Both the position numbers and the translations under genes were made by a program. Positions 16,662 to 64,000 of a stretch of DNA of 64,000 bases are shown one piece after another. The stretch lies in sequence record MT701590.1; one strand, 5' to 3'. The notes under the pieces were generated by a model. The model had not been told where the DNA came from. It did not search any database and was given only the letters and a program-made list of their open reading frames with translations. The stretch's first letter is position 1. Each line of letters starts with the position of its first letter. The stretch is from Klebsiella phage Miami.

Positions 16662-16716
16662 TCAGGTCTTTAATATCTCTTCGTAAATCCAATTACTAAT
16701 TTTAGGAAAAAATATC

Positions 16717-17151
16717 ATGAGTGACGAAATCGAAAAACCAGATTGCTTTTATATTGCTGAAGGTCATCTGTCAGGATGCAGTTCTACGTCTTTCGACAAA
16801 GAAGGGTTCTTAAGTAATACCGAGGTCGATGAAACGCTGATTGAAAGTCTGGTCGGCGGGTATCTCGAAATAGAAGATCACGAAGATGGGCTTAGTTATT
16901 TTGAGGCGTTGGTGACCGTCTCGGAAGAACGGATTGGATGTGGATTTAAAACCCATACGGTAAAACGTCACACGCTCCATATCGAAGCCGTCAATGACGA
17001 ATCAGACACCCTGAAATTCACCATCGACAACGTTGATACGAAAGACTTCGACGCGCTAATCGAACGTTACAACGGTGTGATCTCCGCCTTTGATGAGAAT
17101 CGTCAACACTCTCTGTACTCGGCCTTTGCAACTGCTTTACAATACTGCTAA
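16717..17151 (+). CDS. hypothetical acidic protein (144 aa)
   Basis: Asp/Glu-rich. Preceded by the conserved leader motif. Confidence 0.5.
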   Translation: MSDEIEKPDCFYIAEGHLSGCSSTSFDKEGFLSNTEVDETLIESLVGGYLEIEDHEDGLSYFEALVTVSEERIGCGFKTHTVKRHTLHIEAVNDESDTLKFTIDNVDTKDFDALIERYNGVISAFDENRQHSLYSAFATALQYC

Positions 17152-17161
17152 TTAACATCAC

Positions 17162-17181
17162 TTTTAGGAATAAATATCATG
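17162..17181 (+). promoter_or_regulatory. conserved translation-initiation motif instance (ttttaggaataaatatcATG)
   Basis: One of at least 24 near-identical leaders TTTAGGAA-WW-AACATC-ATG. Confidence 0.6.
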
Positions 17182-17682
17182 TCTGACATCAAACGTATCG
17201 CTGACCTTATGTACCAATCGGTTATTCAAAGAAACCCGGATATTCTGAAAGCCGGTCTTATCGTGCTGGCCACCGACCAAAAAGTAATGGTAAAATCATC
17301 GGTTTATTTTATCCCCAGACCGATCACCGCCGGGAAGGACGAAGTAGAAGGAGAAGTTGAAGAAGCGGCTAAGGAATTCGATTTCCACGTCTATCATCTC
17401 GATAAGGTTAAGGTTATTTTGGATGAAGGGCTTAAAATAAGAGCCGTGATCATCAGTGGCGGGAGTGATAATTTCCCTGGTTTCCAACAACAGCATCTCG
17501 GATATGGCCGGTTCCCTCAAATGGGGGAAATCCACCCTACTGACGTGTTCGAGGTTATTGGGTTTTCTGACGCCGGAATGTATCCAGGAAACGTTTTCGG
17601 TTTATACGATGCGCTTTGTAAAATTTACGATGGTAAGGCGGTTCCCGGGGGACGCCGGGCTGACCGACCAGTTCCTTTCTGA
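17179..17682 (+). CDS. hypothetical protein (167 aa)
   Basis: Conserved leader motif. Confidence 0.5.
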   Translation: MSDIKRIADLMYQSVIQRNPDILKAGLIVLATDQKVMVKSSVYFIPRPITAGKDEVEGEVEEAAKEFDFHVYHLDKVKVILDEGLKIRAVIISGGSDNFPGFQQQHLGYGRFPQMGEIHPTDVFEVIGFSDAGMYPGNVFGLYDALCKIYDGKAVPGGRRADRPVPF

Positions 17683-17725
17683 TTGAACGAGAACATCGTG
17701 AAAACTACAATTATTAGGAATAAAA

Positions 17726-18091
17726 ATGATAGTAAGACTCGTAGTTAACCAACATTGTCGTCTAGGTTGGTGGTTTGAAAGAGAATATTTCTCCCACCTT
17801 AATCGTGATCTGAGAGACCTCGCCCCTAAGAATAGTGAGAAGTATTATTCTGGCGGGGAACATGGTGTTAACCTACTCACGGATGAAGGTGATGAGATCA
17901 GGGCGTGGTTAGAACTCGTCAAAGAAACTTATCCGGTTATTGAAGAAGAGATCGGTTTACTTCTTAAAGAAATCGGAAACAGTAAAGGTGGTTTTTACGA
18001 CATGCGTAAAATACTGCAGGATCGTAAACCCTCTTTACTTTGGCGGTGGTCTCCATTGAACAAGGACTTCTTACCCCCTTCTGTATTTTGA
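17726..18091 (+). CDS. hypothetical protein (121 aa), paralog of 21716..22108
   Basis: Shares RDLRDLAP / WLELVKETYPVIEEEIGLLLKEI with the 21716 ORF (KDLKDLAP / WLGLVADEFPEVGEEVELIVRAI). Confidence 0.5.
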   Translation: MIVRLVVNQHCRLGWWFEREYFSHLNRDLRDLAPKNSEKYYSGGEHGVNLLTDEGDEIRAWLELVKETYPVIEEEIGLLLKEIGNSKGGFYDMRKILQDRKPSLLWRWSPLNKDFLPPSVF

Positions 18092-18176
18092 TCTGCAGTA
18101 ATACCCAGACAAGGATGTCGTCAACACAGCTTAGTGCTGTTTCGAGTCAACTAATTAAACTCAACGAGGAATAAAC

Positions 18177-19215: not shown

Positions 19216-19247
19216 AATACGGAATGCAAATTTAGGAAACCCACATC

Positions 19248-19664
19248 ATGAAAAATATCTTTATCGCCCTCTCTCTGTTCGTTTTCTCTTTCTCTGCACT
19301 GGCTGAAGATTTTGTCTGTAAGACGGAAGCCTATGTCGCTGATCCGAAAGGAACTGATCCGGCCGTAATAACTCACGGTGTTTACAGTTTTGATTACAAT
19401 CGCTCTACCGATGTTTTAACCAAAATTGATGGTAAGAAAGATGACTTCGCAGTCCCTACCTTTGCAGTAGGTAAGGACGACAAAGGCATCACCGTCCGCG
19501 TGGGGTATAAAGGCAAAATGGTATATTGGTTTGGGTTTAACGGCCGTGCTATCGATTCCGTCATTCTGGCGGAACATAAAACCATGATAACCCGAGATTC
19601 TTTTAAAGGGGATACCATGGCGAAAACTGTTTATTTGAAAATGTACAGCGACTGTTCTTATTAA
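19248..19664 (+). CDS. secreted protein with signal peptide (138 aa)
   Basis: N-terminus MKNIFIALSLFVFSFSALA. Confidence 0.55.
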   Translation: MKNIFIALSLFVFSFSALAEDFVCKTEAYVADPKGTDPAVITHGVYSFDYNRSTDVLTKIDGKKDDFAVPTFAVGKDDKGITVRVGYKGKMVYWFGFNGRAIDSVILAEHKTMITRDSFKGDTMAKTVYLKMYSDCSY

Positions 19665-20369: not shown

Positions 20370-20396
20370 CATCAACTTTATTTAGGGAAACGTATC

Positions 20397-20852
20397 ATGT
20401 CATTACTGAAAAACATCGTTATTAAATCTTCTTCTATTTCCGCCATCTGCGGGATTCCGACTTATAAGGATAAACCTTGCGCTTACACCAACGTGGGGTT
20501 CAATCGCAAACTTTACGGCACTGGCGTGGATTACGTCCTTGATAATTCGGATGGGATCCTCAAACAAACTAATCTGGATGAAGCCAGTTCTGATCAGCCG
20601 ACTAAGCTTAACGGTGTTTTCATTATTAAACACATGACTGGGTTGGTTGACGGCAATTCCTGCGTAATCGGGGTTAAGGATGACGTTATCCTTTGCGTAG
20701 CGGATAGCAAGGGTCTTATTTGGACCCACCCCACCCATTCCACAATGACCATTCAGGATGAATGCCTCAAAGAGGTGATGACTCCGGATGGATTCGAGCA
20801 GTATAAGCTGGGGCGCAAACGTCGCTTCTCTGACGATCTGGCTTTCTTTTAA
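20397..20852 (+). CDS. hypothetical protein (151 aa)
   Basis: Conserved leader tttagggaaacgtatcATG. Confidence 0.5.
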   Translation: MSLLKNIVIKSSSISAICGIPTYKDKPCAYTNVGFNRKLYGTGVDYVLDNSDGILKQTNLDEASSDQPTKLNGVFIIKHMTGLVDGNSCVIGVKDDVILCVADSKGLIWTHPTHSTMTIQDECLKEVMTPDGFEQYKLGRKRRFSDDLAFF

Positions 20853-21179: not shown

Positions 21180-21225
21180 CTTAATCGGGAGGAAACTCCC
21201 GATTGATAGATTAGGAAACCACGCC

Positions 21226-21690
21226 ATGTCCGATATTTTTGAAGCTAAGACTTATATCGAAATCGTTTCTTGTTCTGATGACGAGGTGATTCTTAGAGAT
21301 ACTCGCCATGACGGGATCTTGAAAATTAAATGCCTCGGTGATTTAAAAGGAACCGCCGTCTGTTCTGAAATCCAACATGCTTTTATTTACGGTAATCTGT
21401 TGCTGAGAATCAAAGGAGAGAATACTTTCTTCTGCAAAGAAGGGTTTGACCTATCAGGTAACGTTCAAATCCATAACGTTGTTCTTCTCGACCCTATTTT
21501 GGAAGATGCTTCTCTGATCGACGTTGAACTCCCTAATGCAGAGTTAAGCGTCCGTTTTGCTTCTCTTGAAAACGTTCCTTCTTATAAGCGACCAAAGAAA
21601 ATTACCTTGGCTTACGGGTTGTATGCAGGAAGCGATCTTTGTGGTTCTTCAGATATTAACCGTATTAACAGATCGAATGTAAGAGTCTAA
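21226..21690 (+). CDS. hypothetical protein (154 aa)
   Basis: Conserved leader. Confidence 0.5.
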   Translation: MSDIFEAKTYIEIVSCSDDEVILRDTRHDGILKIKCLGDLKGTAVCSEIQHAFIYGNLLLRIKGENTFFCKEGFDLSGNVQIHNVVLLDPILEDASLIDVELPNAELSVRFASLENVPSYKRPKKITLAYGLYAGSDLCGSSDINRINRSNVRV

Positions 21691-22460: not shown

Positions 22461-22484
22461 GACAACCTTTTAGGAATTGACACC

Positions 22485-22862
22485 ATGTCTAAGTTATCAT
22501 CTTCAGCGGTAAATGATTTATTTTGTGACTGTTTGGCTGAATCAGAAGAAGATCCCGACGTAAAGGTCGTAGTGGGTATCGTAGGGGTCTTTATCTTCGA
22601 TCCCGCTAAACTTATTGAAAACAAAGAAAGTATCGTTTCTTTTCTCATGGAGCTTCCTGAGAAATTTCAGGAAGAGAAAGGAGGCGGGTGGAGTTTCCTC
22701 GAAGCTTGTATGGACAAAGAGGGAAACCACTGGGCAGAACATCCAACCATCGAACGGCTAATGGGTCTGGGGATCGCCATAGATAAAGTAGAATACGTTC
22801 TACCGCGCGAAATGTGGTCCGTCCTCCCAGGCGGAATGCCGTATTTTGTTATTAAGAAATAA
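22485..22862 (+). CDS. hypothetical protein (125 aa)
   Basis: Conserved leader. Confidence 0.5.
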   Translation: MSKLSSSAVNDLFCDCLAESEEDPDVKVVVGIVGVFIFDPAKLIENKESIVSFLMELPEKFQEEKGGGWSFLEACMDKEGNHWAEHPTIERLMGLGIAIDKVEYVLPREMWSVLPGGMPYFVIKK

Positions 22863-26089: not shown

Positions 26090-26179
26090 TCAACTGCATT
26101 CAGTAATCGTCATCTGTACTTCTTCAATAGGGGGAACGCTTCCCCTATTTTTCTCCATCTCACTTTTAGGAAAACACAA

Positions 26180-26578
26180 ATGTCTACTATCTCTCAAAAC
26201 TCAACTACTGATATGAACGGCAAAGTGACTTTTAATAAAGGCGCTTTCCCGCAGCTGATGACCCCAACTTTCATGATCTTCATCTGGGCCTATCAGCCGG
26301 TTATGAACGCCATCCAGGGCTGGAACCCGGCCATCGGTTTCATCTTCGCCTTTGTCGTCTTCCTGATCTGGTTTTGTCATGACCGCGCATTCTTGGCTTC
26401 ACAAGGTGCGTTCGTCCCTCACTGGCTTTGGTTCCTTTTCGTTCCGGTGTATATCTATAAACGCCAGAAACGTAACGGTAATAGCCGTTGGTGGGTTGTC
26501 TTCTGGCTGATCAGTGTATTAATGGGTCTGGTGGTTTCCGCCGCCACTATGGCAGTATTCCATCCCCAGGGTTACTAA
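26180..26578 (+). CDS. integral membrane protein (132 aa, 3-4 TM)
   Basis: Trp/Phe-rich hydrophobic segments. Highly-expressed codon signature. Confidence 0.55.
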   Translation: MSTISQNSTTDMNGKVTFNKGAFPQLMTPTFMIFIWAYQPVMNAIQGWNPAIGFIFAFVVFLIWFCHDRAFLASQGAFVPHWLWFLFVPVYIYKRQKRNGNSRWWVVFWLISVLMGLVVSAATMAVFHPQGY

Positions 26579-26630: not shown

Positions 26631-26636
26631 TTTATT

Positions 26637-26656
26637 TCTTAGGAATAAACATCATG
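26637..26656 (+). promoter_or_regulatory. conserved translation-initiation motif instance (tcttaggaataaacatcATG)
   Basis: Matches the window-wide leader consensus. Confidence 0.6.
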
Positions 26657-28488: not shown

Positions 28489-28534
28489 TAATCTTTGTGG
28501 GTGGGGCTTCCCACCCCCTATTTAGGAGAAAATT

Positions 28535-28810
28535 ATGGCTCAGGCGCCATCCATAGTTTATTATGCTGCACGCACCACACCGACGGGAATTCTTTTGGTT
28601 GGTCAGGATCCTGACACCAAAGAGGTTCGTAAGTTCGATGTACCTAAAGATAAGCTGAACGCCAAATTAGGCGAGAAGTTTCGTTTGAGTTTCGGGGAGT
28701 TTCTCAGGGAAGATGAGCCTGACCCGATTATCTTCAGGGTTCATGATCTGAGTAAACCCAAAAAGAAACTCAATCCAAATAAGAAACATGCTAAAAGGAA
28801 AAGAAAATGA
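28535..28810 (+). CDS. hypothetical protein (91 aa)
   Basis: Co-oriented ORF. Confidence 0.45.
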   Translation: MAQAPSIVYYAARTTPTGILLVGQDPDTKEVRKFDVPKDKLNAKLGEKFRLSFGEFLREDEPDPIIFRVHDLSKPKKKLNPNKKHAKRKRK

Positions 28811-29243: not shown

Positions 29244-29250
29244 TCTATCT

Positions 29251-29270
29251 TTTTAGGAACCAACATCATG
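29251..29270 (+). promoter_or_regulatory. conserved translation-initiation motif instance (ttttaggaaccaacatcATG)
   Basis: Matches the consensus. Confidence 0.6.
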
Positions 29271-29968: not shown

Positions 29969-30216
29969 TGGAGAATATCTCTTTCGGCGATTACCGAAGA
30001 TCGTTAGGGCTGACTAGGACCAATCCTAAGACCGATAAAGAGTTCGCGGTTCCTGATCACGCAGAACGCGTTTACGAGATACCCACAGAGATTGATGTTA
30101 TCGAGGGCGGCGTAAAGCTTGAGTACATTAGCGGAAAGGGTCACGTGTACGCGACATACCGCTGGATCGGCGACATGGGTTGGTGGCGCTGGGAAAGCAG
30201 AAATAAACCAAATTAA
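29968..30216 (+). CDS. hypothetical protein (82 aa)
   Basis: Overlapping start and stop. Confidence 0.45.
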   Translation: MENISFGDYRRSLGLTRTNPKTDKEFAVPDHAERVYEIPTEIDVIEGGVKLEYISGKGHVYATYRWIGDMGWWRWESRNKPN

Positions 30217-30230
30217 CTTTAGGGAATATC

Positions 30231-30683
30231 ATGGCTAACGAATTCAACATTAACGGTAAAAGTATCAATGTGCCTTCAGGCGCGTCCATCAGTTTCTCCA
30301 ATGGAGAACTGTTAATTAACGGCAAACCTCCTTCAGAGATTGAGCCTGGTCAGAACATCACAGTTAATATCGTCGTACAGGGTTCTGTTACGAAAATCGA
30401 TATCGGATCAGGGACTGTCACTGTCAATGGATCGGCCGGGGAAATAAAAACAGCATCCGGCAACGTCAATGTCCAAGGTAATTGCGAGGGTCAGATAACC
30501 ACCGCATCGGGGGATGTGGGCGTTGGCCAAGAAGCAAGAAACGGAATAAAAACCGCGTCTGGTAACGTGACCACAAAGACTATAAAGGGCAACGTTGAAA
30601 CTTCTTCCGGAGATATTCAAGCTGATCAGATCGTCGGTAATGTTAAAACGACTTTCGGCACGATAAAACACCCTCATGGATAA
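30231..30683 (+). CDS. bactofilin-like beta-helical repeat protein
   Basis: 150 aa with periodic GNV/GDV/GDI repeats spaced about 8-9 and 17-18 residues (..TASGNVNVQGNCEGQITTASGDVGVGQEARNGIKTASGNVTTKTIKGNVETSSGDIQADQIVGNV..). This resembles the bactofilin (DUF583) triangular beta-helix. Confidence 0.4.
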   Translation: MANEFNINGKSINVPSGASISFSNGELLINGKPPSEIEPGQNITVNIVVQGSVTKIDIGSGTVTVNGSAGEIKTASGNVNVQGNCEGQITTASGDVGVGQEARNGIKTASGNVTTKTIKGNVETSSGDIQADQIVGNVKTTFGTIKHPHG

Positions 30684-32319: not shown

Positions 32320-32345
32320 ATAGACCTAGTTATAACTAGGTCTAT
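32320..32345 (+). terminator. terminator-like palindrome atagacctagttataactaggtctat
   Basis: Perfect inverted repeat after the stop codon. Confidence 0.5.
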
Positions 32346-32384
32346 ATTACCTTTATGCCGAACTAACATTTAGGAATTAAAATC

Positions 32385-32972
32385 ATGATGAATCAATTGA
32401 AGGATTGGATTGACTACACCTCTTACTGGAATACGTATAACCGCGTTCTTCTTCGTAAAGGAGGGATGTACACCGAACAGATCGAACTGGAGCTCACCCC
32501 AATTAACGACGAGTGGGACGAAGTTAAACTCTGTAAAATCCGTAAGCATCGTACGAGCATGGGCCCGGGGGATAAAATTAGTCATCATCTCCATCCTGAC
32601 ATCTTTGCATTGATGGAAGAGAAGCTAGGATATCATTTAGCCCATTTTATCTTTCACTACGATATCTACACTAAGCTAACCAATTACGATGCGAGAAGAT
32701 ACTGGTACTTGCTTGATCGCTATGTCTTTAATGGTGGAGGTGGGATACCTCTGGTGTTGATAGATCCAAGCTTTGATTTGCTGAGAGAGGATTGGGCTAA
32801 AGGGACTTCCTCGGCTTACGCCGACGCTAAACAACGCATTATGGATAGATTGAACATAGGGTTGGATCAGGTAAACAATCTGAGTTTTTTCGGGGATTTA
32901 AGACGCTTGGACATTCACGATCACACACCATTTAGAGTGGGCGTGGCAACTTGGGTGGGGGATAAACGATGA
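32385..32972 (+). CDS. hypothetical protein (195 aa)
   Basis: Conserved leader. Confidence 0.5.
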   Translation: MMNQLKDWIDYTSYWNTYNRVLLRKGGMYTEQIELELTPINDEWDEVKLCKIRKHRTSMGPGDKISHHLHPDIFALMEEKLGYHLAHFIFHYDIYTKLTNYDARRYWYLLDRYVFNGGGGIPLVLIDPSFDLLREDWAKGTSSAYADAKQRIMDRLNIGLDQVNNLSFFGDLRRLDIHDHTPFRVGVATWVGDKR

Positions 32973-33950: not shown

Positions 33951-33971
33951 TATTAATTTAGGAGAAATGAA

Positions 33972-34283
33972 ATGAAATTATTTCTGGTTCGTTCGTCCGA
34001 TAATCATGGGAAATACGAAAGATGGTGGGAATTGGTTGTTGCTGCTAAAGATGAGACGGAAGCAAAAGACATAACGTTCCCGCATCCTGATTTCGTTTCT
34101 GGCGCTTCAGTATTTGAACCAGTCCCTACTGGTGATAGTCATGGTTCGCTATCAGGTCTTCCTTATGGAGAAAAAGGCCGTGGGTATTGGTACCCTAACC
34201 GTGATAACCTCCATGTTATCTGTTTGGGCGAAACTCCTCTTACAGAGCCAGGAGCCATATCAGGGTTTTTCTACCACGCGTAA
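33972..34283 (+). CDS. hypothetical protein (103 aa) of the RGYWYP paralog family
   Basis: See 33439. Confidence 0.45.
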   Translation: MKLFLVRSSDNHGKYERWWELVVAAKDETEAKDITFPHPDFVSGASVFEPVPTGDSHGSLSGLPYGEKGRGYWYPNRDNLHVICLGETPLTEPGAISGFFYHA

Positions 34284-35166: not shown

Positions 35167-35168
35167 CC

Positions 35169-46804: not shown

Positions 46805-46843
46805 AGAGGGGTTAACGCCCCTCTCTCTTATTTTGTCTTTTTT
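46805..46843 (+). terminator. rho-independent terminator agagggg-ttaacg-cccctct plus T-rich tract
   Basis: Stem-loop then CTCTTATTTTGTCTTTTTT. Confidence 0.7.
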
Positions 46844-46859
46844 AGGAATTAACATCATG
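46840..46859 (+). promoter_or_regulatory. conserved translation-initiation motif instance (ttttaggaattaacatcATG)
   Basis: Matches the consensus. Confidence 0.6.
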
Positions 46860-49061: not shown

Positions 49062-49085
49062 GAAACCCTTTTAGGAACTAACATC

Positions 49086-49883
49086 ATGACAGACCAATGT
49101 GAGTGGAAAGACGTTTATGTGACAGGCTGCAATCATGTAAATGATAAGATCATGTTAAAATATCGCCCTCAGTTTAGTACGATGGAAGAACATGATAATG
49201 AAACCTGGGGTCTTCTCGACCAAGTCCCAGAAGATAAAATCGTTATCTTCTTAGGTGACAACTTCCTCAGTCCAGAAAGTCTAATAAGACTAAAACAGTA
49301 TAAGTTTTACAAAGTCCACGTACTCGGTAACCACGATCTCCAAAACGGAGTGAATATAAAAATGATTACCGACGTGATGGATGAAGTCCATGGCAGCATT
49401 AAAATGGACGGGATATGGTTCTCGCACATCCCGATGCATAAACACGCTTTAGGGCATGGTTATATTAACATCCACGCTCACATGCATACCGACACGTTAT
49501 ACGACGATCGTTACGTCAACGTAAGTATGGAGGCGACTAATTATCGTTTATTCTCTGTCGATGAAATACTGAACGGCAAGTACGTTCCTTTTTCCTTCCT
49601 CCCTAAAGGAAAAACAGAATCCTTAGATTTAACTGTCCCGATAAACGTTACTCGGTTTATTCTCGACGAAGAGATCTTTGATCAGGAAGGCAACTTGGTC
49701 GCAGAAATTAAATCAGTTGACGCCAGCCGCCCAATGAAGATAGACGTGAATATAAAAATGTTGCTTAGTGAATTTAAAGCGCATTTTAAATCACCTACCC
49801 AGTTCAAATTCGTCGCAGGTAGGGGGGAGGTTCACTCTAAAATTGTTTTCAACAAAATATCAACTCAGGAGTTATCATCGTGA
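49086..49883 (+). CDS. calcineurin-like metallophosphoesterase, paralog B
   Basis: ..VTGCNHVND..IFLGDNF..LGNHD..HIPMH..HAHMH. Collinear with 34633..35166. Confidence 0.65.
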   Translation: MTDQCEWKDVYVTGCNHVNDKIMLKYRPQFSTMEEHDNETWGLLDQVPEDKIVIFLGDNFLSPESLIRLKQYKFYKVHVLGNHDLQNGVNIKMITDVMDEVHGSIKMDGIWFSHIPMHKHALGHGYINIHAHMHTDTLYDDRYVNVSMEATNYRLFSVDEILNGKYVPFSFLPKGKTESLDLTVPINVTRFILDEEIFDQEGNLVAEIKSVDASRPMKIDVNIKMLLSEFKAHFKSPTQFKFVAGRGEVHSKIVFNKISTQELSS

Positions 49884-50899: not shown

Positions 50900-51337
50900 A
50901 TGAGCTTACGCGCTTTGTATTGTGGTGGTGTCGTTAAAAATGGAATAGTGGCTTGGGGTAACCATATCCCGGTCACTCATCGAGAAACTTTCCTTCAATT
51001 TAAATTTCAACTCAAAGGATGTAAATCGGCTGGGTTCTTAGGGGACGAAGAAGGGTATTTGAAAATTTATGGTAAGAGTATTAGTCTCGGTATCGAGGCT
51101 AACGATTTTACTAATAAACGAATCAGGGCGGGTCAAGACAACTACCGGTTCTTCCGTTGCATGGTGACCGTAGGTAACTACGAATTCCCGTTATTATTTT
51201 GCGGAACTTACGAACCCGAGTTCTTTGAGTTACGTAAGGAAATCACCAGAGACGAGCTTGGCGATGCGTTGAGTCAGCTCGAACAACTGGGCTGCAATTA
51301 TGTCAGCAACGATCGCAGAACCGTTAACTGGCTTTAG
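50900..51337 (+). CDS. hypothetical protein (145 aa)
   Basis: Co-oriented ORF. Confidence 0.45.
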   Translation: MSLRALYCGGVVKNGIVAWGNHIPVTHRETFLQFKFQLKGCKSAGFLGDEEGYLKIYGKSISLGIEANDFTNKRIRAGQDNYRFFRCMVTVGNYEFPLLFCGTYEPEFFELRKEITRDELGDALSQLEQLGCNYVSNDRRTVNWL

Positions 51338-51346
51338 GAAAATGAA

Positions 51347-52570
51347 ATGTTCGAATATCTCATTCAGATAAATCAGGTTCTCTCTTCTGTTCCTATTATC
51401 GGTGGGAGTTTAGCGGTAGCCTTAGGCGGCGGGATCATTGCCGCCTTCTGGAAAGGTCCAGCGTTACTCTCGAGGATTTTTAACTCCACTGTTGTGGTTT
51501 CCTTCACTCTTAATAACTCAGGGTGGGGCAATAATACCAAGCACTACATTGCGTTTATTAAATGGTTTAACCGTTCAGATATTCTTAAGATAACGCGATC
51601 TACTGGTTACGAGGCCGTTTACGACAGCTCTGGTAAAGGGCCTAGTGTCGGCAGTCATTTATTTCGATTTAAGAATAAATGGTACTATCTCAAAATCAAA
51701 GAACTCCCTTCTACGGGAAGCGAGCGTGAGAAGAAAGAGATATGTATAAAGACGTTAGGGTGTTCTGTCAGCATTTTCGACGATCTCTTCGAGGCCTTTA
51801 AGGATAAGACAGATGACGACGGAGAACTCAAAGTAAAACGGTTCAGGGACAATCACTGGTACGACGCCTGTCTTCTCAGCAGGAGGTCGTGGGATACCGT
51901 CATCTTAAACAAAGAAAAGAAGGTGGAAATAGTCGAACTCATCGAAGAGTTTTACGCGTCGAGGGAGTGGTACCGAGAAAGAGGAATACCGTATAAACTC
52001 GTTATTGTATTGTACGGCCCGGCTGGGACGGGTAAGAGTACCGTTATCAAAGCGTTAGCACGCCTGTTTAACAAAAACCTTAACCTCATTTATCTTCACC
52101 AAATGACGGATAACACCTTCCCGGCCAGCATAGAGACGGTAGAGCAAGATTCTTTTATTGCCATAGAGGATTTTGATACGGTTTCTTCTATAGGGTCGAG
52201 GACCAAACCTAAGGAGGAGAAAGATCCGTTCCAAATAGACCTTTCAGACGGAGGATTAAACCTGACCACTGTTTTAAATACATTGGATGGGATCGCTGAA
52301 TTGAACGGTCAGGTCATCTTTATGTCCACCAATCATCTTGAAAAGATCGATAGTGCGCTGATTCGAACCGGTAGGGTAGATGCAAAAATCCATATCGGGT
52401 TTTTAGGTAAAGAAGAGGTCGGAGACTTCATTCAGATGATGTATCCCGGAACGGAAGCTGATTTGGATTTTGTTACAGAAATCTCTGGGTCGGATCTTCA
52501 GTCGTATGCGTTAGCCAACAAAAGAAATTCGGAAGGTTTCTTAAAAGAGCTTAAGGACCATTTTAAATAA
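51347..52570 (+). CDS. membrane-anchored BCS1-like AAA+ ATPase
   Basis: N-terminal TM helix (VPIIGGSLAVALGGGIIAAFW). Walker A VLYGPAGTGKST, Walker B FIAIEDFD, then GLNLTTVLNTLDGIA and RTGRVD as in BCS1-type AAA proteins. Confidence 0.65.
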   Translation: MFEYLIQINQVLSSVPIIGGSLAVALGGGIIAAFWKGPALLSRIFNSTVVVSFTLNNSGWGNNTKHYIAFIKWFNRSDILKITRSTGYEAVYDSSGKGPSVGSHLFRFKNKWYYLKIKELPSTGSEREKKEICIKTLGCSVSIFDDLFEAFKDKTDDDGELKVKRFRDNHWYDACLLSRRSWDTVILNKEKKVEIVELIEEFYASREWYRERGIPYKLVIVLYGPAGTGKSTVIKALARLFNKNLNLIYLHQMTDNTFPASIETVEQDSFIAIEDFDTVSSIGSRTKPKEEKDPFQIDLSDGGLNLTTVLNTLDGIAELNGQVIFMSTNHLEKIDSALIRTGRVDAKIHIGFLGKEEVGDFIQMMYPGTEADLDFVTEISGSDLQSYALANKRNSEGFLKELKDHFK

Positions 52571-52594
52571 CCTTTTATTTTAGGACAAACATCG

Positions 52595-53149
52595 ATGATT
52601 TTACAAGCAGTTAGCGTCGGTGGTAAGAAAACCACCATAGAAATAGAAGAAGGGCTTGTTAATGTTTGGCTGTTAGCTAAGCACGACGTCTTCTTACAAA
52701 ACTTACCTCCTCTGGTTTGTCATGCGTTGATTAAAGAACATATCGAACGCAATATTACCCGTCGACCCGACATTCCTTTAACAGCCCAAGTACGCGAGCT
52801 GATGTACCGTGATATTACCATTAAGCTCAACGGTAAACCAAACTCGGTCATTCCCGTAATTAAAGTAAGGCCGAGTAAAACCAGAAACCAGCTGAACCGA
52901 ATCGTCAAAGAGTACTTCACGGTAAACAGCATGGAGTTCGATAAGAAACTCACTGTTGGGGAAATGCGTAAATTGGAGAAATACCTCCTTTCTTTTTACA
53001 AAGAACCTGTGGAGATCCACAAGAAAGAATTCCCTAATGGGGTTTATAAACTCACCGGCGTGGAATACGAAAATGAGCGGTTTGAAATAACCTTCTCTGA
53101 CGATTTCTTCTTCGCCTTATTTAAAGGACCTGAATACCGTGTTCAATAA
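52595..53149 (+). CDS. hypothetical protein (184 aa)
   Basis: Conserved leader. Confidence 0.5.
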   Translation: MILQAVSVGGKKTTIEIEEGLVNVWLLAKHDVFLQNLPPLVCHALIKEHIERNITRRPDIPLTAQVRELMYRDITIKLNGKPNSVIPVIKVRPSKTRNQLNRIVKEYFTVNSMEFDKKLTVGEMRKLEKYLLSFYKEPVEIHKKEFPNGVYKLTGVEYENERFEITFSDDFFFALFKGPEYRVQ

Positions 53150-56229: not shown

Positions 56230-56256
56230 CTCGAGTATCAATTTAGGAAAAATATC

Positions 56257-56706
56257 ATGCAATTAGATAACATTTGGTTTTTCGGCATAGACGCAGAAGA
56301 TCTAGAAAATTTTAAAGCGATCTTTACCGTAGAAGGGTTAAAGGAACCCTTCGATTTTAATTTCATTCCCTTCACCATTTCGCCTCAGTCGATGGTCGCT
56401 CACACTAAAGAACTGACGATCACGCTTTACCCCGTTAAAGAGAAAATTTTATTAAATGGTAAAGTAGAACAAACGATCTTTAAAGGTTCCGACGGAAGGT
56501 TGTATTTTAACCTGGGTTCGATTATCCAGGTGATGAATAGTCAAATAGCCGCCTTTGTAGCCAAATCCTTTTCTGGGTTTAATAAACTGGGCTGGTTTAT
56601 TAAAGAGATCGACGGAAGTTTTATCCTATTCAACGTCCAGAGCTTCAGTGACGAGGGGTTGATTAAACTGTATCGATCCTCTAGCGTAACCGATAGCTCT
56701 AATTAA
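56257..56706 (+). CDS. hypothetical protein (149 aa)
   Basis: Conserved leader atttaggaaaaatatcATG. Confidence 0.5.
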   Translation: MQLDNIWFFGIDAEDLENFKAIFTVEGLKEPFDFNFIPFTISPQSMVAHTKELTITLYPVKEKILLNGKVEQTIFKGSDGRLYFNLGSIIQVMNSQIAAFVAKSFSGFNKLGWFIKEIDGSFILFNVQSFSDEGLIKLYRSSSVTDSSN

Positions 56707-57257: not shown

Positions 57258-57695
57258 ATGATTTGGGTAAAACAAGCCTGTTCGTTATGGTACGAAAAAA
57301 GAACATTGAAGGACTGGGGTGAGATCCTCACTTTTATTAGTATGTTCTGTCTGATTGTAACACTATGTGCAAGTTTTGCAACTAGTTCTGTTCTTTGGCT
57401 AACATTGTGTGCGATCAATATAGTGCTGATGATTTCTTTAGGGCCTTTGTTCGACTGGTTACACAAAAACAAATCCACGATCGTAATGAGGGTAGAACGC
57501 GAAAGGATGTTAAAAGATCCTTTCGATAGCATGATCCATGCTTATCTGGAAACAGACGGTGCTGATATTGAAGAACTGTTGGACGTACTGCGAATGGATT
57601 CGTTTACGTTACACAATCAAATTAAAAACACGGAGCTTAAAAGTAGGGTGTCTGACGCTATCGCCAAGATGCACCGAAAACAAAGCTCAAATTAA
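57258..57695 (+). CDS. membrane protein (145 aa)
   Basis: Two TM helices. Confidence 0.45.
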   Translation: MIWVKQACSLWYEKRTLKDWGEILTFISMFCLIVTLCASFATSSVLWLTLCAINIVLMISLGPLFDWLHKNKSTIVMRVERERMLKDPFDSMIHAYLETDGADIEELLDVLRMDSFTLHNQIKNTELKSRVSDAIAKMHRKQSSN

Positions 57696-57707
57696 TTAGG
57701 AAAACAA

Positions 57708-58571
57708 ATGAAAACAGCAGAACAACAGTATTTGGATTTAGGGTTTCGCATTGTCGAAGAAGGTGTGTGGGTAGAAAACAAACGAACCGGCGTTCGTTGT
57801 CTAACTGTGGCCAATGAAACTCTTCATTACGACGTGGAAAACGGGTTGACTCCTGTTCTCTCCACCCGCCCCGTCCCTTATAAAGGAGGGTTAGGGGAGT
57901 CCATCGCTTACTTGCAAGGGAAAGGGAACGCCGCTGAATTCCGTGAGTTGGGTTCCAACACCTGGAACTCTAATGCCAACGAGAACGAAGCCTGGCTGAA
58001 CAATCCTAACCGTAAAGGCGAGGATGACATGGGTCGGGTCTATGGCGTTCAAGGACGTGATTGGACTAACCAATTCGGCGCTAAGTTAGACCAGCTGAAG
58101 AAAATCATCGACAACCTTAATCGAGGAATTGATGATCGCGGAGAGATTCTGACTTTCTGGAATCCCGGGGAATTTGAATATGGGTGTTTGCGTCCTTGTA
58201 TGCACACGCACCAGTTTACCCTACTCGGCAATAAACTCCACCTCACCTCGGTGCAAAGAAGCTTCGATTGGGCGTTAGGTGGGCCGGCAAATATGCTTCA
58301 ATGTTATTTCTTCTTACAGTTGATGGCTCAGGTCACGGGACATACCGCCGGTCAGGTCACTCATCACGTGGTCAACGCGCATATCTACGAGAACCAGCTG
58401 GAGTTGGCTAAAGAGCAACTCAAAAGAACTCCTCACCGAACAGATACTCAGTTCTGGGTTAATCCAAATATCCGCACCCTGGAAGATATCGATAAGATGA
58501 CCAAGAACGACGTCAAACTTATCGGTTACTTCAGCGACTACGACCCGATCAAATATCCGTTTACGGTGTAA
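57708..58571 (+). CDS. thyA: thymidylate synthase (ThyA) family enzyme (thymidylate synthase, or a dUMP/dCMP hydroxymethylase-type paralog)
   Basis: Collinear with E. coli ThyA: YLDLGFRIVEEG, NRTG, GRVYGVQGRDW, RGEILTFWNPGE, catalytic Cys in LRPCMHTHQF, QRSFDWALGGPANM. Contains an approx. 45-aa insertion and non-canonical residues around the catalytic Cys. Confidence 0.75.
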   Translation: MKTAEQQYLDLGFRIVEEGVWVENKRTGVRCLTVANETLHYDVENGLTPVLSTRPVPYKGGLGESIAYLQGKGNAAEFRELGSNTWNSNANENEAWLNNPNRKGEDDMGRVYGVQGRDWTNQFGAKLDQLKKIIDNLNRGIDDRGEILTFWNPGEFEYGCLRPCMHTHQFTLLGNKLHLTSVQRSFDWALGGPANMLQCYFFLQLMAQVTGHTAGQVTHHVVNAHIYENQLELAKEQLKRTPHRTDTQFWVNPNIRTLEDIDKMTKNDVKLIGYFSDYDPIKYPFTV

Positions 58572-59634: not shown

Positions 59635-60030
59635 ATGAAAAAGATTATAATCTACACAGCCCCGAGGTCAAGCTTCTTAGGGGCGGGACTCAAAGAAAAA
59701 CTTTTAAAGGAACTGGAAGTGACTTTCGGTTATCTCTTTGATGTACAGGAGATAACCGAAATGGGGATTGAACTAACGGCGCACGAATTCATCATTTCCG
59801 ATGAAGGATTCAATATTCTCGCTAAGGAGTGGGAGAATAAGTTTGAGGATCCGGAGATTCACAAGATGGAGGACGTTTACATGTTCCCGTCTGAGTTACG
59901 TAAAGCAAGCTTGGATAAGTTGAAAGGGGTTAGGGAACTCTTTACGATTAGAGTCGCAACCTTCCTTTCATGCTTACCAGAAGAAACGGCAGTTTTAATC
60001 GAAGCTCAACCCGTCGAAGAAGACGAATAA
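59635..60030 (+). CDS. hypothetical acidic protein (131 aa)
   Basis: Co-oriented ORF. Confidence 0.45.
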   Translation: MKKIIIYTAPRSSFLGAGLKEKLLKELEVTFGYLFDVQEITEMGIELTAHEFIISDEGFNILAKEWENKFEDPEIHKMEDVYMFPSELRKASLDKLKGVRELFTIRVATFLSCLPEETAVLIEAQPVEEDE

Positions 60031-60047
60031 CTTTAGGATTTAACATC

Positions 60048-60425
60048 ATGTATGAGGTTACTGTTTACCATTTCTCCAGACAAGAACTGGAAAAGAAAGA
60101 TCAGGATTTCTTCGAAGACCTGACCAAGAACGAAGGTTGGGTAGAAGACATCGAAGATATTGAAATGGCACTGGGTTCCAGGGAGGGTTGCATTGAAGGT
60201 CAAGAATTCAGATTACCCGTCTCTGCTTTAGATATCCTGGAAATGAAATGGGAGGGGCGTTTTGACTCTGGCATTTGCATGTGTTCCGCCATTTACTATT
60301 TCTCGCCTGAATGCATTGAATCCGTATGTCGCGATCTTTCCGATCATGGTACTCGGGAGGCCGCTCTCTTAGCAGAGTACCTGCAGGGCATCCCCGATAC
60401 CGAAATCGTCGTTATCGAAATCTAA
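60048..60425 (+). CDS. hypothetical protein (125 aa)
   Basis: Start at the ATG after the conserved leader ctttaggatttaacatcATG. The ORF-track start is further upstream. Confidence 0.5.
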   Translation: MYEVTVYHFSRQELEKKDQDFFEDLTKNEGWVEDIEDIEMALGSREGCIEGQEFRLPVSALDILEMKWEGRFDSGICMCSAIYYFSPECIESVCRDLSDHGTREAALLAEYLQGIPDTEIVVIEI

Positions 60426-60930: not shown

Positions 60931-61018
60931 CTTCCATAATTTTTTAAATCGATATTACCACTGTGTCTCAAAATAAAACTTTTTAGGTTGTTTTAACATC
61001 ACTTAGGAGTACGCCCGT

Positions 61019-61393
61019 ATGCGTTATCAACATTTTTCTATCGTCTCTTCCAAAGAAGCATTTTCCATTCGTCTTTCTTACATCCTGCAACATCTGAACA
61101 AAACAGAAACTCAGCGCTCTATCGCGGAGTATTGTGGGGTGAGCACGAGTACCATCTCCGCCATCTGCAACGAGCACGTCCAGTATGTATCCCTCAATAC
61201 GCTGATGAAAATCGCGGATAAACTGAAACTCAACTACGAGGTTGTCTTTAAAGGCAATCGCGGTAAAGTGAGTAACTTTGTTACTGTTGAATCCGCCGTG
61301 GATTACATGAAGCTCGGCAAGCTGAACCCCGTTCGTAAAAATGTGATGAAGGGTAGCTCCCCTGCATTTAAAGGACGGGTGGCGACGCATTAA
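61019..61393 (+). CDS. XRE-family HTH transcriptional regulator
   Basis: ..ETQRSIAEYCGVSTSTISAICNEH..VSLNTLMKIADKLKL is an HTH_3 (Cro/CI-type) motif. Confidence 0.55.
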   Translation: MRYQHFSIVSSKEAFSIRLSYILQHLNKTETQRSIAEYCGVSTSTISAICNEHVQYVSLNTLMKIADKLKLNYEVVFKGNRGKVSNFVTVESAVDYMKLGKLNPVRKNVMKGSSPAFKGRVATH

Positions 61394-61396
61394 TCA

Positions 61397-61424
61397 TGGT
61401 GGGGGTCCGCAAGGGCTCCCACGC
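61397..61424 (+). terminator. terminator-like hairpin gtgggggtcc-gcaa-gggctcccac (GNRA loop)
   Basis: 10-bp stem with two G-U pairs, followed by a T-rich tract. Confidence 0.5.
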
Positions 61425-61454
61425 TATTTATCAATTTATTTTTTAGGATAAAAC

Positions 61455-62012
61455 ATGACCATTATCGTAGGGGTTGTAAAAGAAAAATCGTTAAGTGCGG
61501 ACCGTTATATACTGGATTATAAGCAGATCAACAAAACAGTGTCTTCGGTTTCACGCTACACCGAGAGTAAATTAAAAATATCTCCGGACAATCATTTTTG
61601 TTATGTCTTCTGTGGCGAACAAAAAGAAGAGATTGTTCCATTGGTTCTTAACTATTTACTCAGATTCGAAAAAGGTCTGGTAAAGGAAGACGAATTTATT
61701 CATTGCGGACTTAAATCCTGCGACTCCCTCATTGTGATGTCCGCGAGACATTTTTATTCAATTCAGTTAAATGAAAAACAGGGGGTTTTAGAAGTTCAAA
61801 TTCGTTTGGATGGCGCGGTCACCTATCCTTTTTTAAACAACCATATGGTCGCCGGACTCGATCTCCCAGGGGAAGTAATTCGTCAAGCACTGATGGAAGC
61901 CAATCTCATTCTCCACACCGATGAAAATGAAGTTGATGTAGTCCATCAAAAAGACCTCACTCTTATTAAGAAAGCCACCAAAAAGGAAATTAAAAATGCT
62001 CTTTTATCTTAA
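61455..62012 (+). CDS. hypothetical protein (185 aa)
   Basis: Conserved leader ttttaggataaaacATG. Confidence 0.5.
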   Translation: MTIIVGVVKEKSLSADRYILDYKQINKTVSSVSRYTESKLKISPDNHFCYVFCGEQKEEIVPLVLNYLLRFEKGLVKEDEFIHCGLKSCDSLIVMSARHFYSIQLNEKQGVLEVQIRLDGAVTYPFLNNHMVAGLDLPGEVIRQALMEANLILHTDENEVDVVHQKDLTLIKKATKKEIKNALLS

Positions 62013-62454
62013 CAAGCGGGTTATCGTTGACAGCGTAGCGAACATCTTTATGTTAGCGGACGATACTCCTCACGTCGAGTTCTTATTGGATGGCGACAAA
62101 CGATGGGCTTTCATTCCCTATCATGAAAATAACGGCAGTACGTTATCTGCGGCTATCTCAGTGAATGAGCACGGTGTTTGTTATAATGCGCATTTCAACT
62201 ATAAAACGTTAAGTCTCGATCGTCGTATTCCGTTACCCTCTAATTTGTTAAAAGCCTTTCAAACAGGGGGAGATTCCGACTACTGTAACAACATGCACGT
62301 CGCTAAGGCCGCTTTCTATCACTATAACTGTACCTTTGACGAATTCCAAGCATTGCTAAATAAATCAGGCCGGGAGTACAAAATGTTTGATTTATTAGCG
62401 GTCTCTAAAAGACTTAAGACGATGCAGCCGGAACAATTTAACTGGGTTATTTAA
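61996..62454 (+). CDS. hypothetical protein (152 aa)
   Basis: Overlapping start. Confidence 0.45.
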   Translation: MLFYLNKRVIVDSVANIFMLADDTPHVEFLLDGDKRWAFIPYHENNGSTLSAAISVNEHGVCYNAHFNYKTLSLDRRIPLPSNLLKAFQTGGDSDYCNNMHVAKAAFYHYNCTFDEFQALLNKSGREYKMFDLLAVSKRLKTMQPEQFNWVI

Positions 62455-62544
62455 AACCAAGATTCCTATTATACGTTAAAGAATTTTGGATCTATATCAC
62501 CGTCTTGATGCACTAACCATAATCTTTTTAGGAGTATTAACATC

Positions 62545-64000
62545 GTGAACGTTCGTGGCGTAAAAGTAAAAGCAGAAACCCGTCAAATTATTGATAACAC
62601 CGTAGAGCTCGTTGCAACCGCGGTAACCTCGACCATGGGCCCTAACGGCAAGCTGGTTGTTATTGACGAAACGGGTAATCCTAAAATGACCAAGGATGGG
62701 GTGACAGTAGCGCGCTCTATCCGTTTGGATGATCGGGCAATGGACATCATCGCCAAGATGATCACCGAAGCCTCGATCAAAACGGATGCCGAATGTGGCG
62801 ATGGGACCACCACCACTGTATTCTTAACAAGAGCGTTTTATAACGCCTTTAAAGATAAACTGGATTTCATGACCAAACGCCGGGTGGAAGAGTTAACCAA
62901 AGAAACGATCGAAATGCTCAAAGGAATGACGAAGGTTATTTCTCTTGATAGCCCAGTCCTTCACAATCTGGCGTTAACAACCAGTAATAACGATCTGGAT
63001 ATCGTGGATAAACTCTACGATATCTTTAAGACCATACCTGATCCCATGATTGATTATCGTCGGGGTGTAACAGGTATTGACGAGATCGAATACAGTAAGG
63101 GCAAGGAATTCACAGGCGGGTACGCGCACCCTACTTTCACTAAAGATGGAAGTGGTAGCCCGATTACGATCGAATCGGGTTATGCGTGCATCTTTGAAGG
63201 GAAGTTCAGTATTCCAGATGACGAGTCGGAATTCCTGAAGCTCTTCGATGAGATCACTGAAAGGGGATATCGTCAGACTGTTGTTATCGCACGTGAATTC
63301 GACGAACACACCCTGATGGTGATGAACAAAATGAATCACGTTATGCTGACGCAGAAACTGGTGGAGGAACCGGTTTTCATTCCCGTGCGGGTTCAGGCTA
63401 TCGGAACAGCGGGAGTGGGGATCATTGGAGATATTGCAACGGTACTGGGATTAAACCAGGATGTGGACTATTCAGGTTGGAAGTCTCGCAACTATGAAGT
63501 ACGCCCCATTGAAAACGTTGTAGTGAAAGGCGCGCTATTCTTTGTGGGTAGCATGTCCGATGATGTCTCGGAACGTACAGTAAAGCGTATCGCGCAAATT
63601 AAAGATCAAATCGATAACTTGCCAGCTGCTCAGAAACACACGCCTTTGGCGAAGATCCTGAGACACCGTATCTCTACTCTGATGGGTAACCGAGTGACTG
63701 TAACCGTTGGAGGAGAAACCGCTTCCGACATCAAAGAACGACTGGATCGATTTGAAGACGTCGGTCGGGCTATCGCATCAGCGTTAACTAACGGCGTCCT
63801 TCCGGGCATTGGTTATTCATTGGCTTATGTTGGTAGTGAGCTGGTGAAGAAATATCCTGACGATTCTATAGTGAAACTGTACGCCGATGTATTGGGCGAG
63901 CAGCTTCACATGTTGATGGGTCGGGAATTCAATGATCCTGAATTAGTCTATGTCAATCTGGCTACTGGGGAAACCGGTAAGCATCCTCAAGACATCAACG
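62545..64000 (+). CDS. groL: GroEL-like (group I) chaperonin, N-terminal ~485 aa (3' end beyond window)
   Basis: GTG start after the conserved leader. KAETRQIIDNTVELVATAVTSTMGPNGKLVVIDETGNPKMTKDGVTVARSIRLDD...AECGDGTTTTVFLTRAF aligns with GroEL residues ~5-95 (..LGPKGRNVVLD..PTITKDGVSVAREIELED..AGDGTTTATVLAQA). The frame is open to nt 64000. Confidence 0.8.
   Translation, partial: MNVRGVKVKAETRQIIDNTVELVATAVTSTMGPNGKLVVIDETGNPKMTKDGVTVARSIRLDDRAMDIIAKMITEASIKTDAECGDGTTTTVFLTRAFYNAFKDKLDFMTKRRVEELTKETIEMLKGMTKVISLDSPVLHNLALTTSNNDLDIVDKLYDIFKTIPDPMIDYRRGVTGIDEIEYSKGKEFTGGYAHPTFTKDGSGSPITIESGYACIFEGKFSIPDDESEFLKLFDEITERGYRQTVVIAREFDEHTLMVMNKMNHVMLTQKLVEEPVFIPVRVQAIGTAGVGIIGDIATVLGLNQDVDYSGWKSRNYEVRPIENVVVKGALFFVGSMSDDVSERTVKRIAQIKDQIDNLPAAQKHTPLAKILRHRISTLMGNRVTVTVGGETASDIKERLDRFEDVGRAIASALTNGVLPGIGYSLAYVGSELVKKYPDDSIVKLYADVLGEQLHMLMGREFNDPELVYVNLATGETGKHPQDIN

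Follow-up and report, generated by a model that had tools for sequence, protein, structure and literature searches.

The stretch of DNA analysed here, 64,000 nucleotides of Klebsiella phage Miami (record MT701590.1; hereafter the window), carries from 11 to 64 kb about 100 small genes in one direction, mostly without known function. About one quarter of the small genes in the window start directly behind a leader of about 19 bases with the layout T-run, AGGA, A-rich spacer, ATC and ATG. This leader is a discrete sequence class, it is fixed in position with respect to the start codon, it lies on the coding strand, it is biased toward one class of genes, and it is specific to one phage lineage.

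As for the phage itself, KPN8 (OP079919.1, 256.6 kb) is a near relative, with 95-97% identity across most of the window, and YC1, BUCTxx100, phiKp_32 and VB_ZK_P1 have 84-96% identity to it. The gene products of KPN8 include a PhuZ tubulin, beta/beta' RNA-polymerase subunits in split form, and homologues of two known proteins, the nuclear-shell protein PhuN of phiPA3 and gp71 from the phiKZ non-virion RNA polymerase (nvRNAP); because of this gene set, the window phage is a phiKZ-like, nucleus-forming Klebsiella jumbo phage (Chimalliviridae). Judged by PhuZ, the next genus is that of Vibrio phage Aphrodite1, at about 41% identity. The small-gene region is the richest in insertions and deletions, and between relatives only 33-86% of it is covered.

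Regarding its frequency, the 19-mer TTTAGGAAWWAACATCATG had 11 matches with at most three mismatches in the window, all on the plus strand, against 0.11 expected from shuffled sequences, so that both the shuffled and the reverse-strand controls were exceeded. TTTAGGA occurred 24 times on the plus strand and 6 times on the minus strand, and TTAGG sites were followed by the start of an open reading frame (ORF) of at least 50 amino acids in 39 of 78 cases on the plus strand versus 7 of 59 on the minus strand. TTAGG occupied the Shine-Dalgarno (SD) position of 32 window genes, 14 of which had ATC at -3 to -1 as well; its distance to the start codon was most often 15 nt (half of the cases) and varied from 11 to 17 in the window and from 12 to 20 in KPN8. 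In the upstream non-coding DNA of KPN8, TTTAGGA was the top enriched 7-mer apart from a poly-C run (31 observed versus 2.5 expected).

A sequence-only reading of the window had listed 24 start codons with near-identical leaders. All 24 are ATG or GTG codons preceded by a T-rich tract and AGGR, and their ORFs agree with the KPN8 annotation; "near-identical" was too strong, since TTAGG is in the SD window of 22 of the 24, but ATC is at -3 to -1 in only 14, and only 10 are within two mismatches of the 16-nt core in register. The start at 29546 is an exception, with TTAAGG, and so is that at 36730, whose site suits the ATG at 36733 better; the leader at 61455 matches the 16-nt core only when shifted out of register, so that the match overlaps the ATG. 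That list also lacked ten TTAGG leaders, at starts 11263, 28535, 33972, 35169, 36733, 37316, 45368, 51347, 57708 and 61019. The leaders are given below in window positions, each including its start codon.

16698..16719, plus strand, full composite leader (TTTTAGGAAAAAATATC-ATG) with TTAGG and ATC, one mismatch to the 16-nt core
17160..17181, plus strand, full composite leader, 27-nt gap after the upstream stop
19229..19250, plus strand, composite leader (TTTAGGAAACCCACATC-ATG), spacing 16, first gene after a terminator hairpin and promoter-like motif
20378..20399, plus strand, composite leader (TTTAGGGAAACGTATC-ATG), 27-nt gap
26635..26656, plus strand, full composite leader behind a hairpin and T-run
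29249..29270, plus strand, full composite leader, 24-nt gap
30212..30233, plus strand, composite leader with short spacing (TTTAGGGAATATC-ATG)
32366..32387, plus strand, full composite leader, 28 nt downstream of a promoter-like motif
42205..42226, plus strand, full composite leader, 24-nt gap
46838..46859, plus strand, perfect consensus match (0 mismatches) behind a hairpin and T-run
49067..49088, plus strand, full composite leader of a Ser/Thr phosphatase-like gene, 24-nt gap, with a BUCTxx100 mosaic junction inside the leader
56238..56259, plus strand, composite leader, spacing 14, 27-nt gap
60029..60050, plus strand, full composite leader, three different upstream contexts among relatives, ATC-ATG kept in all
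62526..62547, plus strand, composite leader of a GroEL-like chaperonin gene (GTG start), spacing 17, downstream of a promoter-like motif
11244..11265, plus strand, partial leader (TTTTAGGAGTCAATATCA-ATG), not in the earlier list
17707..17728, plus strand, partial leader (ATTAGGAATAAAA-ATG), the base before AGG differing among orthologues
21207..21228, plus strand, partial leader (ATTAGGAAACCACGCC-ATG) behind a hairpin
22466..22487, plus strand, near-complete leader (TTTTAGGAATTGACACC-ATG), 24-nt gap
26161..26182, plus strand, partial leader (TTTTAGGAAAACACAA-ATG) behind a hairpin
28516..28537, plus strand, partial leader (ATTTAGGAGAAAATT-ATG) behind a hairpin, not in the earlier list
33953..33974, plus strand, partial leader (ATTTAGGAGAAATGAA-ATG), not in the earlier list
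34288..34309, plus strand, partial leader (CTTTAGGGGAAATCTC-ATG), 23-nt gap, mosaic junction in 4 of 4 relatives
35150..35171, plus strand, partial leader (ATTTAGGAGAATAGCC-ATG), not in the earlier list
36714..36735, plus strand, partial leader (CTTTAGGAGA-ATGATGATG); the previously listed 36730 is the first of three ATGs
37297..37318, plus strand, partial leader (ATTAGGAAAACACATA-ATG) of a NadR-like gene, not in the earlier list
40564..40585, plus strand, partial leader (TTTTTAGGAGCATGTAAC-GTG), first gene after a terminator hairpin and promoter-like motif
45349..45370, plus strand, partial leader (ATTTAGGGCTACGATT-ATG), 24-nt gap, not in the earlier list
51328..51349, plus strand, partial leader (CTTTAGGAAAATGAA-ATG) of an AAA ATPase gene, not in the earlier list
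52576..52597, plus strand, near-complete leader with a one-base shift (TTTTAGGACAAACATCG-ATG), 24-nt gap
57689..57710, plus strand, partial leader (ATTAGGAAAACAA-ATG) of a thymidylate synthase gene, not in the earlier list
61000..61021, plus strand, partial leader (CTTAGGAGTACGCCCGT-ATG), with a second leader-like TTTTTAGG..AACATCAC just upstream (60983-61006)
61436..61457, plus strand, partial leader (TTTTTTAGGATAAAAC-ATG) behind a hairpin

Regarding its composition, AGGA is invariant or nearly so at -13 to -10, the same place as the SD sequence of other genes, and it is complementary to the 3' end of 16S rRNA (CCUCC) over 4 bp only; the flanking T on its 5' side and A on its 3' side do not lengthen this pairing when read against the E. 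coli 16S 3' end. The spacer has a modal length of 9 nt, with a range of 6-11, in front of ORFs of at least 50 amino acids and on the plus strand only, and T is present at -14 to -17 in 70-100% of the leaders, which gives a U/A-rich tract 5' of the SD sequence. Among the KPN8 leaders with spacing 15 (n = 20), the conserved positions are T-16 (18/20) and T-17 (14/20) on the upstream side, and A-6 (17/20), C-4 (13/20), A-3 (18/20), T-2 (13/20) and C-1 (17/20) in the spacer; A-10 is also informative outside the AGGA core. Nothing conserved was found upstream of about -19, and accessibility and minimum free energy over -35 to +35 did not differ significantly between motif and non-motif leaders. The earlier observation stands because the motif is more frequent than its controls and because conservation does extend beyond AGGA, to T-16/-17, A-6, C-4, A-3, T-2 and C-1 in KPN8; the view that an SD sequence alone is insufficient also holds, as the T-run and AYATC are both conserved and statistically coupled.

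This coupling defines the class. Between TTAGG and ATC, the odds ratio (OR) was 8.9 in the window (p=6e-5), with p=0.002 for free-standing leaders, i.e., those with at least 20 nt of non-coding DNA; in the whole KPN8 genome (295 genes), TTAGG was present in 52 leaders, ATC in 40, and both in 25 (OR 14, p=3e-12). Among free-standing KPN8 leaders, ATC accompanied 22 of 44 of the TAGG type versus 1 of 26 of the AAGG type (p=4.5e-5), and versus 7 of 124 of all others (p=6e-10). The AAGG-type SD sequence is the one that pairs better with 16S rRNA. Given that ATC is found in half of the TAGG-type leaders but in a single AAGG-type leader, the leader is a discrete sequence class and not a gradient of ribosome-binding-site (RBS) quality.

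The class is also lineage-specific, and it is neither a generic SD context nor the putative early promoter described below. Three other KPN8-like phages had 12-14 composite leaders each in the syntenic 49 kb, and none was found in Aphrodite1 (100 kb, sister genus), in an unrelated Klebsiella phage (50 kb) or in E. coli ribosomal-protein operons (50 kb). ATC at -3 to -1 taken alone was mildly favoured (5-8%) in all sequences compared, including the unrelated Enterobacterial ones, and may reflect a general preference of the host ribosome. A scan of IMG/VR for the exact pattern TTTAGGAANNAACATCATG returned 13 contigs with one match each, which is chance level, and no relatives were among them. 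With these data, it is hardly credible that the motif is an ordinary AT-rich SD context over-read by eye: intergenic DNA is AT-rich, and leaders in general tend to have A at -3 and little G in the spacer, but the hundredfold excess of matches on a single strand, the coupled halves and the absence from control genomes that use the same ribosome all speak against it, and a chance origin is excluded.

As for its distribution in KPN8, the leader is on 0-1 of the 39 genes of the structural block (0-50 kb), with no composite form, and on 24-26 of the 94 genes of the small-gene array at 100-150 kb, 17 of which have the composite form; the composite form is concentrated at 50-150 kb and is absent from the 38 minus-strand genes. 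The gene-class bias proposed earlier is thereby supported, with near-absence from the structural block and concentration in the array. The composite leader precedes the DNA ligase, protease, GroEL and phosphatase genes, and the partial form precedes those for PhuZ and thymidylate synthase. Motif leaders never occur at overlapping gene junctions; the gap after the upstream stop is exactly 24 or 27 nt for 9 of 31 motif leaders (11 of 31 counting 21- and 23-nt gaps), and in gaps of 21-27 nt the entire intergenic region consists of the module and about 5 nt. Nine other window leaders follow a GC-rich hairpin, 5-25 nt behind it, and the T-tail of the hairpin merges into the T-run. In addition, the KPN8 region 233835-233898, upstream of the nvRNAP gp71 homologue, has a leader-like TTTAGGAATAACAAC in its 5' untranslated region (5'UTR) with no start codon behind it, and the real SD sequence of this gene (AGAGG) lies 10 nt after it; TTTAGGAATAACAAC may be a decayed or displaced leader.

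Regarding transcription signals, a position weight matrix (PWM) built from long intergenic regions revealed a promoter-like motif composed of a T-run, (R)(W)(Y)CTATATTAYC, about 6 nt and GTAAAC, located 28-47 nt before start codons; a naive search with CTTTATTATC as the promoter gave too few copies and was replaced by the PWM. KPN8 has about 25 strong copies, essentially all intergenic and on the coding strand, including those that precede the chimallin and nvRNAP-gp71 homologues. The copies in the window are listed below.

32337..32356, plus strand, best copy of the promoter-like motif (TAGGTCTATATTACCTTTAT), separate from the leader
11032-11051, plus strand, promoter-like motif
19121-19140, plus strand, promoter-like motif
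40527-40546, plus strand, promoter-like motif
53618-53637, plus strand, promoter-like motif
59080-59099, plus strand, promoter-like motif
60945-60964, plus strand, promoter-like motif
62487-62506, plus strand, promoter-like motif

In phiKZ, early promoters are characterized by an AT-rich box that resembles an extended -10 element and is preceded by a T-rich tract (PMC8244752, PMC7598289), and the shell protein and nvRNAP genes are early (PMC4666361). From its fit to this description, and because it precedes homologues of such early genes, we infer that the CTATATTAYC motif is the early promoter of the virion RNA polymerase (vRNAP) in this phage lineage. Genes directly downstream of this putative promoter carried the TTAGG leader in 11 of 20 cases versus 40 of 273 of the others (OR 7.1, p=8e-5); because of this enrichment, the leader is separate from the promoter and downstream of it, and it preferentially marks the presumed early transcription units, on first and internal genes alike.

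The earlier suggestion of a combined promoter and ribosome-loading module is not supported, since the distinct, conserved AT-rich motif sits 28-47 nt upstream of first genes, and many leaders lie in intercistronic gaps of 24-27 nt with nothing conserved beyond about -19. Compared with phiKZ-type vRNAP early promoters, the leader has GG, abuts the ATG and sits in 24-nt gaps; compared with phiKZ-type nvRNAP late promoters, it has no TATG and is absent from the structural 0-50 kb of KPN8. A related possibility, which is very improbable, is that the T-run and AGG form or contain a start-site promoter element of the phage nvRNAP, similar to the 4-nt TATG at late start sites of phiKZ and giving very short leaders whose 5' end would be at the SD sequence or immediately before it. 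Chimalliviridae nvRNAPs do recognize a tiny start-site motif (PMC4666361, PMC12809450); transcription of phiKZ begins at about 149 sites, which amounts to nearly one per 2 kb (PMC10914365), a density similar to that of the leader, and the nine window leaders placed 5-25 nt after terminator-like hairpins have no other conserved element in between. However, the motif keeps the SD distance to the start codon, a constraint that need not apply to a promoter, it is missing from the structural (late) genes, and first genes have the separate promoter-like motif upstream; if transcription began at the G of AGGA, half of the SD sequence would be missing from the mRNA, and the 5'UTRs of phiKZ are mostly 31-40 nt, with no leaderless mRNAs (PMC8244752).

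Between 16001 and 36000 of the window, matches to sigma70-type promoters were depleted (25 versus 35 +/- 5.5 in shuffles), as expected because the phage does not use the host RNA polymerase, and terminator-like hairpins were twofold enriched (38 versus 18.7 expected). Long intergenic regions contain conserved hairpins (ACTCCTACTCCC-loop-GGGAGTAGGAGT and similar forms) with T-runs behind them; the stem of the perfect ones is ACTCCTAC(TCCC)/(GGGA)GTAGGAGT, and a TA..TA frame and a T-rich tail often accompany it. Copies of the hairpin number more than 20 in KPN8, with GGAGTAGGAG observed 10 times against 0.32 expected. They are probably intrinsic terminators, partly bidirectional, and are comparable to the conserved intrinsic terminator motif of phiKZ (PMC10914365); a search of the window against Rfam found no match. 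The perfect copies in the window are as follows.

5256-5290, intergenic, perfect conserved hairpin
10040-10070, intergenic, perfect conserved hairpin
19057-19090, intergenic, perfect conserved hairpin
30692-30722, intergenic, perfect conserved hairpin
40476-40510, intergenic, perfect conserved hairpin
44310-44345, intergenic, perfect conserved hairpin

As for the evolution of the leader, the genes behind it are not paralogues; the window has one paralogous pair, with the motif on only one member. Orthologous leaders are well kept while the bases upstream of about -19 diverge, e.g., at 32385, where the leader is unchanged in 5 of 5 relatives and the bases immediately upstream differ; the module is under selection as a sequence because orthologous leaders are more conserved than the adjacent non-coding bases. 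At 59132, orthologues differ by a one-base swap between TTTAGGA and TTAAGGA. A different upstream neighbour in relatives, that is, a mosaic junction, was found for 13 of 31 motif leaders versus 13 of 69 others (p=0.025), and at 22485, 49086, 60048 and 16717/17179 the breakpoint falls within the leader itself; at 22466..22487, relatives have another upstream gene and a TTTAGGAATTAACATC leader, which places the junction inside the leader. Thus, the module also serves, or suffers, as recombination microhomology for cassette exchange between related phages.

These data raise the question of whether the similarity is mainly historical, i.e., a good leader spread or homogenized among cassettes of the hyperplastic early arrays, by recombination or gene conversion where genes meet, and functioning as an ordinary RBS, which is quite improbable. 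The enriched mosaic junctions with crossovers within the leader would fit such a history, as would lineage specificity, concentration in the most indel-rich region, the precedent of the PeSL elements (PMC2839356, PMC4122927) and one copied 5'UTR pair, the leaders at 40583 and 62545, which share 20 identical bases. Nevertheless, apart from that clear pair, flanks are not shared beyond chance (11 similar pairs versus 4 expected, a slight excess), the excess at junctions is modest and confounded by the free-standing position of these leaders, and the stronger conservation of orthologous leaders indicates selection; moreover, copying would hardly place a unit of 19 nt precisely against the start codon in more than 30 genes that are not homologous.

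The reading favoured here, with about even confidence, is that the leader is a lineage-specific, modular, cis-acting translation-initiation region for host ribosomes, used by about one quarter of the early/non-structural array genes. In such a module, the U-run at about -17 to -14 would be a platform for ribosomal protein S1, the short 4-nt SD sequence AGGA at -13 to -10 would form a moderate duplex, with flanks that do not extend the 16S pairing, and the G-free, A-rich 9-nt spacer ending in AUC would, because it lacks G, contain no competing start codon. Acting in cis, the leader would then load host 30S subunits with high efficiency, both in promoter-proximal 5'UTRs and in the 24-27 nt intercistronic gaps of polycistronic early transcripts; as a secondary effect, a module of 16-19 nt would offer microhomology where gene cassettes swap. 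We infer the early timing, S1 and the 30S subunit as the reader, and the high efficiency. Base pairing between ATC and a GAU at the 3' end of 16S rRNA (GAUCACCUCCUUA) was considered and rejected by reasoning, as a 3-bp helix would have to close a 6x4 internal loop.

Several points weigh against this translational module. The discreteness and lineage specificity of the leader are not fully explained by it and keep a dedicated phage factor alive; the host ribosome alone does not dictate the leader because it is absent from the three control sequences, and the exclusivity between TAGG with ATC and AAGG resembles recognition of a specific sequence more than a gradient of RBS quality. If initiation strength alone counted, a stronger SD sequence (TAAGGAGG) would be expected, and the predicted accessibility of -16 to +3 is no better than in other leaders. 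Finally, the literature on KPN8, YC1, BUCTxx100, phiKp_32 and VB_ZK_P1 yielded no transcriptome or motif work.

The factor in question could be an endoribonuclease, a repressor/activator or a ribosome modifier, encoded by the phage, which would recognize the leader post-transcriptionally and switch the early regulon as a block; this is unlikely, although it would account for the discrete, lineage-specific class, for the bias to presumed early genes with absence from structural ones, and for the conservation of bases irrelevant to 16S pairing (T-16/-17, C-4, C-1). A precedent exists in T4, where RegB/S1 accounts for an extended SD motif of 11 nt common to early mRNAs (PMC1702504). Early genes of phiKZ (NC_004629.1), including PHIKZ014, have their own extended leader, GTAAAAAGGRA, placed 8-9 nt before the ATG, with five exact plus-strand copies at 2700, 4201, 4551, 6187 and 7405 in one 50-kb sample, and such a different repeated leader fits factor-site pairs that co-evolve. 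On the other hand, tblastn and phmmer searches of KPN8 and the window found no homologue of T4 RegB (best E 0.16-0.63) or RegA (best E 0.23-2.2), although an enzyme unrelated to RegB may be present, and T4 RegB/S1 disfavours both the A found here at position 4 of its site and the C at position 9 (PMC1702504). No RNA-binding protein candidate emerged, the annotated "ribonucleases" being RNase H and an Acb1-like/exonuclease-like protein; there is no antisense leader copy for an anti-leader RNA (19 cores on the plus strand, 0 on the minus strand), and only about 25-30% of the array genes carry the leader, which is therefore not a mark of the whole class.

A broader form of this proposal, rather unlikely as a whole, is that the leader is a regulon-wide address label of early mRNAs, read by a phage RNA-binding protein, a nuclease or phage-modified ribosomes. 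It is doubtful to the same degree that the label would let early transcripts go first at host ribosomes or silence all of them together, and similarly doubtful that each Chimalliviridae lineage would have its own label (TTTAGGAA..ATC here, GTAAAAAGGRA in phiKZ), co-evolving with its reader. Since the leader repeated on phiKZ early genes is another one, it may be common in Chimalliviridae for each lineage to have its own early leader.

Other features of these phages deserve mention. The tail-spike gene at 693-4334 of the window (1213 aa) encodes a TSP1/Gp66 domain at the N-terminus and an endosialidase chaperone at the C-terminus; the central and C-terminal part of the gene is not in KPN8 and has about 80% DNA identity to tail-fibre genes from unrelated Klebsiella phages of 47 and 160 kb, which looks like horizontal exchange of a capsule-specific receptor-binding module. 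The 339-aa gene at 25070-26089 encodes T5orf172/MUG113 and zinc-finger domains, of the GIY-YIG-like homing-endonuclease type; it is missing from that position in KPN8, YC1, BUCTxx100 and VB_ZK_P1, and is likely a mobile endonuclease insertion. Outside the window, KPN8_60, annotated as "RNA ligase", matches the anti-CBASS Acb1 family (E 6e-13) and is a probable counter-defence gene. BUCTxx100 (OR529409.1), recorded as a "Stenotrophomonas phage", has about 96% identity to these Klebsiella phages over the array, so that either the host label of the record looks doubtful or its host range looks unusually wide.

In nucleus-forming jumbo phages, mRNAs must exit a vesicle or the proteinaceous nucleus and compete for host ribosomes, and to our knowledge post-transcriptional control in these phages is almost unexplored. 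A leader on about 50 genes, mostly early by the assignment above, would be a handle for learning whether these phages have a dedicated regulator of translation or mRNA decay; together with the early-promoter-like and terminator motifs, it provides a first transcription/translation map for KPN8-like Klebsiella phages, which are candidates for therapy, and it marks sites of gene-cassette recombination. Were it only a good RBS, it would still be a strong, portable initiation module and an aid to start-codon annotation.

Among known systems, the S1-binding and T7 gene 10 leader "epsilon" enhancers have a U-rich tract 5' of a moderate SD sequence and an A-rich, G-poor spacer, in highly expressed phage genes. 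By analogy, the leader described here appears similar in tract, SD sequence and spacer, and it differs in being more defined (about 12 informative positions), a discrete class and confined to one phage genus. As for the T4 RegB/S1 sites (GGAGRAYARAA), they and the leader are both extended, class-specific sequences around the SD GGA of early genes, followed by an A-rich, single-stranded stretch, and host S1 takes part in the recognition of the T4 sites (PMC1702504, PMC3014915). However, the core here is AGGAA and not GGAG, with A at position 4 in 12 of 20 (KPN8) and 12 of 15 (window) spacing-15 leaders, whereas T4 sites strongly prefer G there and GGAA is very poorly cut by T4 RegB (PMC1702504); the C-rich column at -4 (13/20) corresponds to position 9 of the 11-nt frame, GGAAWWAAC, where T4 sites never have C (PMC1702504). 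The 5' T-run and ATC at -3 to -1 belong to the leader, whereas T4 needs nothing upstream.

The PeSL elements of T4-like phages are short repeated intergenic elements in hyperplastic early regions, at junctions where close relatives differ by insertion, deletion or replacement (PMC2839356); the leader resembles them in its concentration at 50-150 kb of KPN8, its enrichment at junctions and the breakpoints inside it. PeSL combine a sigma70 promoter and a terminator stem-loop in about 50-70 nt, whereas the leader is a 19-nt RBS module with neither; it often adjoins phage promoter or hairpin motifs, but these are separable and present only at some sites. Finally, the phiKZ leader is likewise a repeated extended SD context, with an A-run instead of a T-run and another spacer. 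In conclusion, the kind of element is known, namely a class-specific extended RBS context of phage early genes; what is new is its sequence, the host-phage system and an unusually sharp two-class structure.

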